DNA from: Promethearchaeota archaeon
GTDB taxonomy: Archaea > Asgardarchaeota > Lokiarchaeia > Sigyniarchaeales > SOKP01
DNA length: 40,502 nt
Direction of reading: 5' to 3'
NCBI GenBank assembly: GCA_016839765.1
Contig: JAEOTP010000032.1
Coordinates: 1 to 40,502, forward strand
Below the pieces are notes generated by a model. The model was not told the DNA's origin. It ran no database searches and saw only the letters and a program-made list of their open reading frames with translations. The position numbers and the translations under genes are program-made. Positions within the stretch are counted from its first letter, which is position 1; every line of letters begins with the position of its first letter. Below are positions 245 to 5,636 of the stretch, piece after piece.

Positions 245-1810
245 TTACTTTATAGCCCTGGTATTTACAATAGCATTTAGCATTACTTTAAGATTTTCAA
301 ACATCTGTTCTCTAAAGTCAAGACCGATTTTAAGAAATAGAATGGAAACTAACTTTTCCTCTAAATCTTCTTCGATATGGAATTGTTCCATTAGCCGAGA
401 TAAATTAATGTCATCGTTAACTCTTAATCCAACGATTATAACTCTCTTTTTTCTTATTTTTTTAATTATATCAATTAAAATGTCTTTCCATTTAGGATCA
501 ATATCTTTTTTATCCCGTGCATCAAAAATTACAAACGCACCATCTGTATTTGCAAGATTATAATTATCATAAGGAAAATTATTAATAATTAAACCATTTT
601 TATATGCATATAACTGTTCTTGAGCACTGTCTTTAATTTTTGAATATTCACCAAGTTTTTCTAACTCGGTTATAGTATGGAAACCAGGACTCCAATTCAA
701 GTTTTCAGTAATAAAGGATAATTCTAAAATAATAAGCTTTTTCAAGGTGGAAATTATGAGATCTGCTAATTCATCTTTAATCATATCTTTTTCTTTTTGC
801 TTTATTCTTAAAATATAATGATAAGCAATCAATTTAAAAGCATCTGAAACGTTGGTACCATCTAGAGCGCTCGTTTCTGTGTAAGATAATCCCTTTTCTG
901 AAAGAGCATTTGCCAAATCTTCTCCCTGTTGAAATGAAACTACTCTATGATCCTCTAAATCTGTTTTATTACCAGCGATCACCATAGGAATCTCTTCTTC
1001 TTTAATATATTCTGTTATTTCATCATACCAATTTTTAACATTATCATACGATTCGCGATTTGTGATATCATAAACAATAAAAGCTGCCTCAGCTCCAGAA
1101 TAATACAGCTTTCTGAACCTTTTAAAGTATTGCTGAGCTCCTATGTCCCATAATGTTAAATTAATTTCATTTCCTTGAAAAGTAAACGTATGGGCTAAAA
1201 TATTTAAACCGATAGTAGGTCTATAATCAAAAGCGAATTTTCGTTCTACAAATCTACGAATAATAGAGGTCTTACCAACTTCATGATCCCCAACAATAAC
1301 AAATTTAAATGAATATGCTCCTCTTTCTTCAAGATCACTAACTTGAAATATCTGTTGTTTTAGTTTTTCATGTCTGTCCACTTCCTCCTCAAAATTTGGG
1401 ATGGTTAATTGAAGTAAATCATCTTCCTGAGCGTGTAGGATCTGTGCTGACTTTTCGGCGAGGAAATAAGCATAAGGTGATATTTCGTCAATAGAGGCCA
1501 TGCTTGTCAAAACTAGGCTTAAAATTCTTTCTTGATCAATTGAAACAAATAATAATCTATATTCGTCAGTATCAAAACTAGCGGTACCAAATTTCTGAAA
1601 AGCAAATTCATTTCTTATTCTTTCAAGTACAGGATTAATTAAAGTAGTCAAGACGGAAACAATTTCAAGGTCACTGCTAATATCTTTTCTTTTTTCTCCA
1701 GCGATAATTAAACCTTCAACGTCAGATATAATAACTGCTTCCAGTTGCTGGAATCTATCTAAAAAACTACTTAATAACTCACGAAAAAGTTTATTCCTTT
1801 TAATTACCAA
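245..1810 (-). CDS. Roadblock/LC7-like domain + Rab-like small GTPase + C-terminal degenerate GTPase-like domain
   Basis: N-terminal 'LEAVIISDVEGLIIA' roadblock pattern. G1 GDHEVGKTS, G2 PTIG, G3 WDIGAQ, G4 NKTD, G5 ETSAL. The C-terminal ~160 aa echo the G-domain strand order. Confidence 0.85.
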   Translation of the reverse strand: MVIKRNKLFRELLSSFLDRFQQLEAVIISDVEGLIIAGEKRKDISSDLEIVSVLTTLINPVLERIRNEFAFQKFGTASFDTDEYRLLFVSIDQERILSLVLTSMASIDEISPYAYFLAEKSAQILHAQEDDLLQLTIPNFEEEVDRHEKLKQQIFQVSDLEERGAYSFKFVIVGDHEVGKTSIIRRFVERKFAFDYRPTIGLNILAHTFTFQGNEINLTLWDIGAQQYFKRFRKLYYSGAEAAFIVYDITNRESYDNVKNWYDEITEYIKEEEIPMVIAGNKTDLEDHRVVSFQQGEDLANALSEKGLSYTETSALDGTNVSDAFKLIAYHYILRIKQKEKDMIKDELADLIISTLKKLIILELSFITENLNWSPGFHTITELEKLGEYSKIKDSAQEQLYAYKNGLIINNFPYDNYNLANTDGAFVIFDARDKKDIDPKWKDILIDIIKKIRKKRVIIVGLRVNDDINLSRLMEQFHIEEDLEEKLVSILFLKIGLDFREQMFENLKVMLNAIVNTRAIK

Positions 1811-1948: not shown

Positions 1949-3517
1949 CTAACTTAAATCTTTGATTGTATTTAACATTACTTCCAGCTGATCATAGATT
2001 TCAAGGCGATATTCAATACCAATTTTAAAAAATAACAAAGAAATCATTTTATTCTCTATATATTTATTTATATTAAATTCTTCCAATATTTGAGACCAAT
2101 CACTTGCTTCAGATACTCTAATTCCTATTAGGGCTACTTTATTCTCAGTAATGTTATTTATAATATTTATCACAGTTTCTTTCCATTTTGGTTCAATATG
2201 CTCCTTTTCTCGGGCATCAAAAATTATAAATACTCCATCTGAATCAGAAATATCAATATTATCAAAGAGAAAATTCTTTATAACTAAACCATTTGAATAT
2301 TCATATACTCTCCTATCTTTATCATCTTTTACTTTCTCACAATCACATAGTTTATTAATTTCTGTTAAAATTTGTAATCCTGGACTCCAAAGAGGATTTT
2401 CAGTGATAAAAGAAATTACAAGTTTTTCATTTTTATCTAATATTGAATTTAATATATTCATCAAATCTAGCTTTAAACGTTGTTCCTCTATTTCTATACT
2501 TCTCATAATATAATGGTAAGCTATTAAATTAAAAGCATCTTCTATACTTTCTCCAGTTAACGCACTTGTTTCAATAAATGAAATTCCTCCCTCATATTGA
2601 CCACTTGCTAATTCACTTGTTAATTTTACACCATCTTCATAGCTTATTACTCTCTGGTTAGTTAAATCAATTTTATTTCCAATAATGACAATCGGTAATT
2701 GTTTATTCTCTAAGATTTTTCTTAATTCATAATACCAATCTTTTACATGGATGTAGGATTCTTGGTTTGTTACATCAAACACAATAAATCCTGCTTGGGC
2801 ACCAGAATAATAAGTTTTGCGGAATCTTTTAAAAAATTCTTGGGCACCCAGATCCCAAAAATTAAATGTAACTTGATTACCATAAGATTTAATACTATGA
2901 CTCATTATATTTAATCCTAGAGTAGGACGATAATCAAATGAAAATTTCTTTTCTACAAATTGTCGAATTATCGATGTTTTACCTACTTCATGATCACCGA
3001 TAAATATACATTTAAATTTATACTTACCACCTGAATCTAGTCTCATTTGATATATTTGTTCTTTTATCCTACCAGAATTTTCAGAGAGACTTACCTCAAC
3101 TTCAAAATTCGGTATTGTTAATTGAATGAGGTCTCCCTCTTTTGCATTTAATATTTGGGCAGTCTTCTCCGCTAGAAAATAACCATAGGGACTAACTTTA
3201 TCAATTGAACCTAGAGTATTTAGAACTATACTTAAAGTTGTAGTCTCATCAATGGAGATAAACAGCAATCGATAATTCTCAGTATCAAAGCTTGCAGTTC
3301 CAAATTTCTTAAAGGCGAATTCGTCCCTCATACGTTCTAAAATAGGTTGGATTAATCCAGTTAGAACCGACACTAATTCCAGATCTACACTAACTTTCTT
3401 CTCTCCCGCGATTACAAACCCTTCATGATCAGAAACAATCACTGCTTCGAGATCATCATCAATTTCCAAGAATTTGGTATATAATTCTTTGAAGAGTGGA
3501 TCAATATTTATTGCCAT
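1949..3517 (-). CDS. Paralogous roadblock + Rab-like GTPase + degenerate GTPase-like domain protein
   Basis: Colinear with 245..1810 over its full length: LEAVIVSDHEG, GDHEVGKTS, PTLG, WDLGAQ, NKID, ETSAL, DGVFIIFDARE. Confidence 0.85.
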   Translation of the reverse strand: MAINIDPLFKELYTKFLEIDDDLEAVIVSDHEGFVIAGEKKVSVDLELVSVLTGLIQPILERMRDEFAFKKFGTASFDTENYRLLFISIDETTTLSIVLNTLGSIDKVSPYGYFLAEKTAQILNAKEGDLIQLTIPNFEVEVSLSENSGRIKEQIYQMRLDSGGKYKFKCIFIGDHEVGKTSIIRQFVEKKFSFDYRPTLGLNIMSHSIKSYGNQVTFNFWDLGAQEFFKRFRKTYYSGAQAGFIVFDVTNQESYIHVKDWYYELRKILENKQLPIVIIGNKIDLTNQRVISYEDGVKLTSELASGQYEGGISFIETSALTGESIEDAFNLIAYHYIMRSIEIEEQRLKLDLMNILNSILDKNEKLVISFITENPLWSPGLQILTEINKLCDCEKVKDDKDRRVYEYSNGLVIKNFLFDNIDISDSDGVFIIFDAREKEHIEPKWKETVINIINNITENKVALIGIRVSEASDWSQILEEFNINKYIENKMISLLFFKIGIEYRLEIYDQLEVMLNTIKDLS

Positions 3518-3642: not shown

Positions 3643-4215
3643 ATGGTTAATTGTATTATCTGTCATTTGGGAATGAATGAAGTTGAGAGTTTTCAAGAAT
3701 GCCCAAATGGTCATCCGACTCATAGTGATTGTTTACGAGAATGGTTACTCCACTCTTCAAACTGCCCATTGTGTAATGAGCCATACCCTCAAATTATTAT
3801 CGACAAATTCAAAACTTATATTAACAAGAAGGAATTGGAAGATCAAAAAGCATTTGAAGAGGAACGCAAAAAAGAAACGGTAGAAAAAATAGAAAAGGTT
3901 ACTGATCAAATTGCATTTATGAAATTTACTGAATCTATTGACATTTTGATTGAACAAAAAGAATATGATTATGCATTCTCTAGATTAGAAATGCATAATG
4001 AACAAAATATATCGACCGAGAAAGGCAGGATGATTACTTTTCTTAAAGGTAAATTAAATTATTTAAAAGGCAGATATGATTTAGCAATCAACTTTTTGTT
4101 TAAATTAGTCAAGGAAAAATTTGATTATCCTGAAGGATTTCTTTATCTTGGTAAAGCATATGAGGCGCTTGGATTAGCTGATAAAGCACAATGGGCTTAT
4201 GAAAGAGTTAAATAA
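3643..4215 (+). CDS. RING-H2 finger + coiled coil + TPR protein (putative E3 ligase)
   Basis: C-x2-C-x12-C-x3-H-x2-H-x2-C-x3-W-x6-C-P-x-C, followed by TPR helices (FLKGKLNYLKGRYDLA; LYLGKAYEALGLADKA). Confidence 0.8.
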   Translation: MVNCIICHLGMNEVESFQECPNGHPTHSDCLREWLLHSSNCPLCNEPYPQIIIDKFKTYINKKELEDQKAFEEERKKETVEKIEKVTDQIAFMKFTESIDILIEQKEYDYAFSRLEMHNEQNISTEKGRMITFLKGKLNYLKGRYDLAINFLFKLVKEKFDYPEGFLYLGKAYEALGLADKAQWAYERVK

Positions 4216-4241: not shown

Positions 4242-5636
4242 ATGAAAAATTTTTGCTTAACAATTGCAGGTTCAGATCCAACTTCTGGGGCCGGTATTCA
4301 AGCAGATATTAGAACCTTTGACAGATGTGGAGTTCATCCTTTTTCTGTTATAACAGCAATTACGTATCAATCAGCTACAAAATTCCTTGGATATAAATCT
4401 CTTTCAGATACTCTTGATTTTCAATTAGATGCTATCTTAAGCGTTTATCCGATTGAATATGTAAAAGTGGGTATGATTCCAGATGTAAAAGCACTTGACA
4501 TTATTGTTAATTTCATCAAAAGAGATAAACTATTTGTTGTATATGATCCTGTATCAATATCTAGCGTAGGAGAAAGACTTTCGAGTGAAGGATTAGAATT
4601 AGAAATTGAACGAAACCTATTTCCTCATGTGAGAGTTCTTACACCTAATCTCTCAGAGGCAGAATACTATTCTAATATGAATTTAAAAGACGTCAGAGTA
4701 GAAAACATGGATAAACTCAAGGAGTCAGCAAGGATTCTCTTAGAAAAACTATATGCTGATAAAAAAGTTAAGAATGAAGAAAAAGCGGTTGTAATTAAGA
4801 GTGTATTGAGTACTCAAAATGAAATCTATGATGTTATCAGCTTTATTAAAAAAGCAGAATTAGACTTTAACATTTTTAAAAAAAAGAAAATTTCAATTGA
4901 AAGAAATATTCACGGAACTGGATGTGTATTTTCCTCTGCTATAACGGCATTTCTTTCCAAAAATTATTCTATAATAAGAGCTATTGAAATGGCAGAGGTT
5001 TTTTTTGACGAAAAATTCCAATATTTTATTGAATTACCAGATGCAGGTCGATTACTTGATTTAACTTTCTCTGAAGAAAGATTAAAAGTTATAAATCAAA
5101 TCAAGGAAGTTTATAATTATATTTCCAATATTAAAAAATTTACACAATTAATTCCAGAAGTTAGGTTAAATATTTCATGTTCTCTACCACATGCAAAGGA
5201 TAAGTCTGAAGTTGCTGGAATAGAAGGTCGAGTAACAATCATAAACAAATTTCCAAAAGCTTCTGGTGAAATTAAATTTGGAATCTCAGATCATACTGCA
5301 AGATTAATCCTTGCTGCTAAAAAGTTTGATAATTCTATCAATTTTGTAATGAATTTAAAATATAATCCTGATTGGATATCTTTAATTCGAAATAATACGA
5401 CATTGAAATTACGTGAAATAAAAAGGGAAAAACAGCCTAAAGAAATAAAAGAGCAAGAATTTTCTACTATGCAGTGGTTAATTAAAGAGAGTATTAACGA
5501 ATCAGGAAAAATACCGGATATTATTTGGGATAAGGGATCTATAGGAAAAGAAGCTATTATCAGAGTTTTTGCTAAGGATTCAAAGGACATGATAAATAAA
5601 CTTCAAAATATTATAGAATTGATTGAAGATCACTAG
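4242..5636 (+). CDS. thiDN: Bifunctional HMP(-P) kinase / thiamine-phosphate synthase ThiD-ThiN
   Basis: ThiD motifs TIAGSDPTSGAGIQAD, VKVGM, TPNLSEA and HGTGC; ThiN motifs LIPEVRLN, FGISDH and PDIIWDKG.GKEA.IR. Confidence 0.92.
   Translation: MKNFCLTIAGSDPTSGAGIQADIRTFDRCGVHPFSVITAITYQSATKFLGYKSLSDTLDFQLDAILSVYPIEYVKVGMIPDVKALDIIVNFIKRDKLFVVYDPVSISSVGERLSSEGLELEIERNLFPHVRVLTPNLSEAEYYSNMNLKDVRVENMDKLKESARILLEKLYADKKVKNEEKAVVIKSVLSTQNEIYDVISFIKKAELDFNIFKKKKISIERNIHGTGCVFSSAITAFLSKNYSIIRAIEMAEVFFDEKFQYFIELPDAGRLLDLTFSEERLKVINQIKEVYNYISNIKKFTQLIPEVRLNISCSLPHAKDKSEVAGIEGRVTIINKFPKASGEIKFGISDHTARLILAAKKFDNSINFVMNLKYNPDWISLIRNNTTLKLREIKREKQPKEIKEQEFSTMQWLIKESINESGKIPDIIWDKGSIGKEAIIRVFAKDSKDMINKLQNIIELIEDH

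Follow-up and report, generated by a model that had tools for sequence, protein, structure and literature searches.

A predicted degenerate G domain fused behind Roadblock-like and Rab-like domains in paired lokiarchaeal GTPases

The window, a stretch of 40,502 nucleotides, opens with two co-oriented minus-strand paralogues that are 52% identical end to end and whose relatives carry Promethearchaeota/Lokiarchaeota names. Paralogue A (245..1810, minus strand) has a TTG start and encodes 521 aa; paralogue B (1949..3517, minus strand) lies upstream of A, encodes 522 aa and has the same architecture, a Roadblock-like domain followed by a Rab-like G domain and a putative pseudoGTPase domain. The N-terminal domains (1427..1810 in A and 3140..3517 in B, minus strand) are 63% identical. 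That of A follows the order helix, two strands, helix, three strands, helix in a model with pLDDT 41-85, and Pfam Robl_LC7 matches in relatives are weak (E about 0.05); secondary structure and these scores tentatively suggest a Roadblock/LC7-like domain. The Pfam Ras match spans only residues 169-329/333 in both paralogues, and the last ~180 residues have no Pfam match at E<=1. A sequence-only reading had placed a second, degenerate G domain in this C-terminal part of both proteins. Both open reading frames exist, the motifs quoted from them lie where they had been located, and the coordinates given for the core agree with those found here, residues 360-519 of A (254..733, minus strand, read as 733-254) and residues 364-522 of B (1952..2428, minus strand, read as 2428-1952). 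The two cores, hereafter the dead domain, are 43% identical. A promoter scan stayed at chance level, and a search for RNA runs listed no RNA holder. Beyond the pair, a divergent RING-TPR gene and then thiD-thiN are found at 3643-4215 and 4242-5636 of the window, and in the metagenome loci L041 and L042 the GTPase genes have these neighbours as well.

The first G domain looks active. In A (806..1318, minus strand) it has GxxxxGKT at G1, the G2 Thr, DxGAQ at G3, NKxD and ETSA; that of B (2501..3025, minus strand) was delimited by Pfam. G1, G2, G4 and G5 are present, the Pfam Ras match reaches E 2e-48, the TM score to Rabs is about 0.9, and G1 and NKxD are found in 107/107 full-length relatives. 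The DxGAQ motif, which has Ala at the position of Ras Gly60, occurs in both paralogues (window 1133-1150 and 2840-2857). This replacement is shared by 92/107 relatives, and the canonical DxGGQ is found in 13/107, which belong to distant families; since these distant members with a dead domain keep DxGGQ, the change at G3 is younger than the fusion. Neither paralogue has a Cys at its C-terminus, unlike prenylated eukaryotic Rab. One continuous helix of 39 residues (residues 321-359 of A; 734..850, minus strand) comprises, in the model of the whole protein, both alpha5 of the active G domain and the N-helix of the dead domain. The spacing from ETSA to the WxP of the dead domain is 61 residues in 93/107 relatives and 60-63 in 106/107. 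The pTM of the full-length model is only 0.66, so that the inter-domain geometry is not firmly predicted.

For the C-terminal domain, AlphaFold was given a 74-sequence alignment and returned a model with pLDDT 91.3 and pTM 0.89. It begins with an N-helix, beta1 and alpha1, continues with three strands in succession and a short loop at the switch II site, and ends with beta4-alpha3-beta5-alpha4-beta6-alpha5. Three of the seven strands follow in a row without helices and thus make up a beta2-beta3 hairpin, which is absent from receiver/flavodoxin folds. The best 50 PDB matches in Foldseek were all G domains, with Arf-GDP leading. VIA, a Foldseek-independent search of 48,161 chains, placed Asgard HodArfR1-GDP at the top (Z 14.2, rmsd 3.5, 165 aligned residues), and in a second VIA search, with Z up to 14.8, all of the best 50 rows were Arf, Arl or Sar. 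GTPase matches in VIA range over Z 14.2-14.8 across 162-165 residues, whereas the best non-GTPase matches, a B12-binding domain (Z 11.5, 136 aligned), TIR (10.6) and the receiver-like 2rjn (9.6), span 123-136 residues; flavodoxin superposes on the model with a TM of 0.53, below the GTPases. A separate Atlas model of a member of a distant clade, about 15-19% identical, also matches G domains. The small-GTPase fold proposed for both C-termini is therefore upheld by a model with pLDDT 91 and by top matches in Foldseek and VIA that are G domains. A receiver/flavodoxin fold, named beforehand as the contrary outcome, is ruled against by the seven strands, the hairpin and the lower scores.

The sequence signal is faint and has the same direction. 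Identity to GTPases is only 6-15%, profile-profile probabilities are 38-82%, and no PDB match had an E value under 0.17 when a single sequence was searched. A profile search against PDB sequences reached Rnd1 at E=0.01, a broad profile ranked the G-domain ORFs of the genome above other ORFs of similar length (p=1e-5), and the weak genome matches outside the fusion family were to Arf-like GTPases only. The C-terminal domain is very probably a G-fold pseudoenzyme.

The GTP-binding motifs of this domain have been lost, as had been claimed for GKT, DxxG and NKxD: GK[ST] and [NT]KxD are each found in 0/107 full-length relatives, and the G3 Gly and the G5 SA are also absent. Motif positions were mapped by the beta1-loop-alpha1 register in the model. 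The beta1-alpha1 loop has the length of an active P-loop (residues 366-376 of A; 683..715, minus strand), and in A the positions of Gly15, Lys16 and Thr17 are taken, by this register, by Trp, Ser and Pro. In the 74-sequence alignment, the Gly15 position is Trp or Phe in 74/74, the Lys16 position is Ser, Asn or Asp, and the Ser/Thr17 position is Pro in 74/74. G4 has become hydrophobic-Arg-x-Ser and G5 K-I-G; the Arg at the G4 Lys position (Arg463) occurs in 73/74 and is not kept in distant families. The switch II helix is missing from the model, and the switch II region is ~8-10 residues short in the own family and longer in distant families, which suggests that the decay was stepwise. These losses, as far as sequence can tell, argue strongly that the dead domain no longer binds nucleotide. 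Most of the conserved residues outside the core (Trp373, Pro375, Asp430, Arg432, Arg463, Lys494 and Gly496) lie by topology on the former nucleotide face. The replacement motifs had been described as conserved, and this holds within the own family; across three families, however, FITEN and PKWK are not kept and the P-loop Pro is the sole invariant residue. In paralogue B, a D-S-D-G string is located at the start of beta4 and not at G3.

The dead domain is kept by selection. Pooled over 10 independent, non-overlapping gene pairs, dN/dS amounts to 0.131 in the dead domain, against 0.128 in the active G domain and 0.087 in the Roadblock domain. This confirms the purifying selection suspected from the sequence, at a strength equal to that on the active G domain. 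The dead domain occurs in 124/134 genomes of its own family and in 4/4 and 1/1 genomes of two sister families of the same Loki order. In a fourth family belonging to that order it was found in 0/14 genomes, and among the 400 genomes searched from the phylum it has practically no other occurrence. One genome outside (family f16) has two copies of family-like identity on one small contig, possibly a binning artefact. Weak matches in family f13 were discarded as members, being Arf-like GTPases of the ordinary kind whose motifs are intact. When 1.8 billion representatives were searched with a profile, 44 proteins were retrieved, and those inspected were full fusions or fragments, one of them with a TPR tail.

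Among relatives, the dead domain is always fused, and the short forms that were checked are partial or broken genes. Candidate standalone versions were rejected, since the short matches proved to be partial or broken genes, one having an in-frame stop in the linker and another a frameshift in the dead domain. In 23/29 other loci a second copy is directly adjacent. The upstream paralogue is broken in L041 (1445-3010, in-frame stop at the linker) and in L042 (1350-2911, frameshift inside the dead domain, in four contigs), by either pseudogenisation or assembly error. Proteins of a third paralogue class (P0100; G170:C3 and G205:C32) are about 895 aa long, the dead domain being followed in them by a coiled stretch and TPR repeats. 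In the distant families (L031 and L038), a single-copy gene lies beside genes that, from their translations by eye, are glutamyl-tRNA synthetase-like and IPP-isomerase-like.

The two paralogues have diverged mostly at the C-terminus. Identity between A and B, a comparison confounded by uneven sampling (95 vs 23 sequences), is 46% after residue 340 and 60-62% in the other domains, against 71-74% within each class, and 22/31 A/B-diagnostic columns lie after residue 340. The mean net charge of the alpha3-beta5 loop (residues 449-457; 440..466 in A, minus strand), which is polybasic in A only, is +5.2 among class A sequences and +0.7 among those of class B. A complex prediction with the G and dead domains of A and those of B, from which the Roadblock domains were omitted, scored 0.00 and speaks neither for nor against their association.

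The origin of the dead domain was judged with the same pipeline applied to both G folds. In VIA the first G domain is Rab-like (Z 24.6 to Rab vs 18 to Arf) and the dead domain Arf-like (14.2 vs 10.1 to Rab). GerdArfR1 matches the dead domain better in its GDP form (Z 13.4) than in its GTP form (11.9), Arf chains without the N-helix still reach about Z 12, and the alignment to 8OUL joins residues 8-181 of the model with residues 2-186 of the chain. The predicted model has features of the Arf GDP state, a strand at switch I and an N-helix packed on the core, both of which have been described for ArfR1-GDP (10.1101/2024.02.28.582541). The Arf switch-II signature (WDxGGQ...R..W) and the G motifs are absent, as is the free N-terminal amphipathic helix of Arf, the helix instead continuing the preceding alpha5. 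Over short stretches only, hhalign gives probabilities of 77 to Arf/Rag-like, 77 to MglA-like, 42 to Rab-like and 43 to the own G domain, and BLAST of the C domain against the own G domain returned matches of only 34-72 residues (E 0.005-0.007). The notion that the C-terminus repeats the adjacent G domain therefore stands as regards the small-GTPase fold but not as regards its source: a dead domain that resembles Arf-GDP rather than its Rab-like neighbour makes a simple tandem duplication doubtful. That an Arf/Rag/MglA-like domain was captured seems likelier than a duplication, and convergence on an Arf-GDP-like shape is possible. In a tree of the Roadblock and G domains, all 25 dead-domain carriers group, but with support of only 82/82, which is compatible with a single gain.

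The favoured reading of the function, which we hold with a modest preference, is that the dead domain serves, independently of nucleotide, as a docking or anchoring module with a rigid connection to the switch. Conservation as strong as that of the working domain makes a fixed docking module probable. The dead domain would be a class-i-like pseudoGTPase locked in an Arf-GDP-like shape with no GTP bound, which may offer a constant docking or anchoring surface, while the Rab-like domain would act as the sole switch. Dimers, either of A with B or homodimers, are probably formed through the Roadblock domain. The 39-residue helix, if rigid, would fix the position of the dead domain relative to the switch and so present a partner or a membrane at a set geometry. 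After the duplication, A, and not B, would have gained the polybasic loop and a basic tail, with an anionic membrane or an acidic partner as the likely target. The predicted fold, the motif loss, the selection, the fusion, the fixed linker and the paralogue divergence are findings; the absence of nucleotide binding, the docking role, the dimerisation and the membrane contact are what we infer. The analogue for the docking reading is AAGAB, in which a class i pseudoGTPase domain binds, without nucleotide, to a partner of longin/roadblock fold (PMC12490416).

Other functions can be envisaged. The old pocket might have been repurposed as a ligand sensor that binds another anionic small molecule, such as a phosphorylated metabolite, a lipid head group or a nucleotide at low affinity, with the linking helix relaying the signal to the active GTPase. 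Arg432 (74/74; 28/33 across families), Arg463 (73/74) and, at G5, Lys/Arg494 and Gly496 come together by topology on what was the nucleotide face, and the P-loop has preserved its length, but two phosphate-holding positions are occupied by Trp and Pro, Arg463 is lost in distant families and the guanine-specifying Asn/Asp are replaced by hydrophobic residues and Ser, and we consider a sensor rather improbable. The same low probability is given to a built-in regulator, in which the dead domain would act on its own or the partner-chain G domain as an autoinhibitor or in a GDI-like or GEF/GAP-like manner, with DxGAQ as the matching change. The obligate fusion, the fixed spacing and the G3 Gly to Ala change in 92/107 relatives are consistent with it, and regulatory cross-talk has a precedent in tandem G-domain proteins such as Der/EngA and Miro; against it, DxGGQ is kept by distant dead-domain members (13/107), and a straight 39-residue helix leaving alpha5 would tend to hold the domain off the switch regions.

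The remaining explanations deny the domain its G-domain ancestry or its function. A chance likeness to a G domain in an unrelated alpha/beta fold (Rossmann-, receiver-, flavodoxin- or B12-binding-like) would fit the 6-15% identity, the non-GTPase Z values of up to 11.5 and the profile-profile probabilities of 38-82%, yet GTPases score higher over longer alignments, the beta2-beta3 hairpin is present and three independent tests of what sequence signal is left all indicate GTPases, which makes this very improbable. A vestigial copy decaying without function is hardly credible: all catalytic motifs are lost, the distribution is lineage-restricted and broken copies occur occasionally, but a dN/dS of 0.13 refutes such decay, and the domain is retained in 124/134 genomes and two more families at near-invariant length. 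A bolder form of the docking proposal, in which a dead, GDP-state-locked Arf/Rag-like domain was grafted independently onto a Roadblock-Rab-like switch, the two proteins pair as a heterodimer through their Roadblock domains and the polybasic loop of A anchors the complex to a membrane, is speculative and unlikely as a whole. If true, it would reveal a eukaryote-style multidomain signalling protein in a Lokiarchaeal lineage and a prenylation-free membrane route for an Asgard Rab-like GTPase.

Pseudo-GTPases have been reported from prokaryotes to humans (PMC12490416). Those of class i (the AAGAB/Irc6 N-domain, CENP-M, the dynein LIC G domain and p190RhoGAP pG1/pG2) have the same small-GTPase fold without G1-G5 motifs (PMC12490416 and references there). 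The dead domain shows no sequence link or preferential structural link to them; it is archaeal and follows, in one chain, a Roadblock domain and a Rab-like domain that looks active, and its origin is most likely independent of the eukaryotic pseudoGTPases. Clusters of CENP-M are among the language-model look-alikes at 0.87-0.89, which is a lead only. A G domain and dead G domains share one chain in p190RhoGAP. Two G folds in one chain are also found in Miro and Der/EngA, where both G domains bind nucleotide and the linkers differ from the one described here; the whole-chain superposition on Miro1 is poor (rmsd 19.8).

Asgards are known to have Roadblock-GTPase (RB-G) fusions with the same first two domains (Tran et al. 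2024, PMC10933270; Klinger et al. 2016 via PMC4917890); the extra C-terminal dead G domain sets the present proteins apart. The texts of PMC10933270 and PMC4917890 do not mention such a domain, and figure 1f of Tran 2024 includes '?' domains. A 340-aa RB-G paralogue without the dead domain is encoded in this same genome (G000:C25:33938-34957). Rag/Gtr heterodimers and the Lokiarchaeal Rag-like GTPases (8YL2, 9M28) also form a tandem paralogue pair with a Roadblock and a G domain, but in the reverse order, with the G domain N-terminal and the Roadblock C-terminal; here the switch is Rab-like and a third domain is present. Arf-GDP, including Asgard ArfR1-GDP (8OUL, 8OUN), is the best structural match, with its packed N-helix and its switch I as an extra strand, and differs from the dead domain in retaining the G motifs and a switch II that is here largely deleted, in a helix that is here an internal linker, and in sequence (6-15% identity). 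The literature search found no paper joining 'pseudoGTPase' and 'Asgard' and none on the Roadblock, Rab-like and dead G design; each of the two ingredients, pseudoGTPases and the Roadblock-GTPase fusions of Asgards, is known by itself, and their three-domain combination appears to be undescribed.

Asgard small GTPases do not have the lipid anchors of their eukaryotic cousins, and identified regulators and effectors are mostly lacking. A conserved, selected dead G domain provides an expressible module with which to study the positioning and the binding partners of Asgard switches, and suggests that the conversion of a GTPase into a nucleotide-free scaffold, as in CENP-M, AAGAB and p190RhoGAP, took place in archaea too. 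The weight of the case is limited by its occurrence in one Loki order only and by its not being a demonstrable ancestor of any eukaryotic pseudoGTPase.

About 75 ORFs of this genome have a small-GTPase match. Ras-like domains without G1 and/or G4 were noticed at C51:106890-107855, C39:372-1175, C65:2904-3698, C60:19754-20710, C54:4828-6279 and C54:7250-7789; in C54:4828-6279 two Rab-like domains stand in tandem, and NKxD is replaced by NRxN in the second. With these other motif-degenerate G domains, the fused dead domain would be one instance of a broader, under-described trend. A standalone protein of 205 aa (G000:C77:8205-8819; L044:1206-1820, minus strand) has a G-domain-like strand pattern and no Pfam match. 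GK[ST] and NKxD are absent from its 26 homologues, it is found in 118/134 genomes of the own family, and it shows a weak profile match to Rab/MglA-like sets. Considered as a donor of the dead domain, it was rejected, no relation being detectable; it is a candidate second pseudoGTPase family, and possibly corresponds to an unnamed Atlas cluster of 1136 members and 196 aa.
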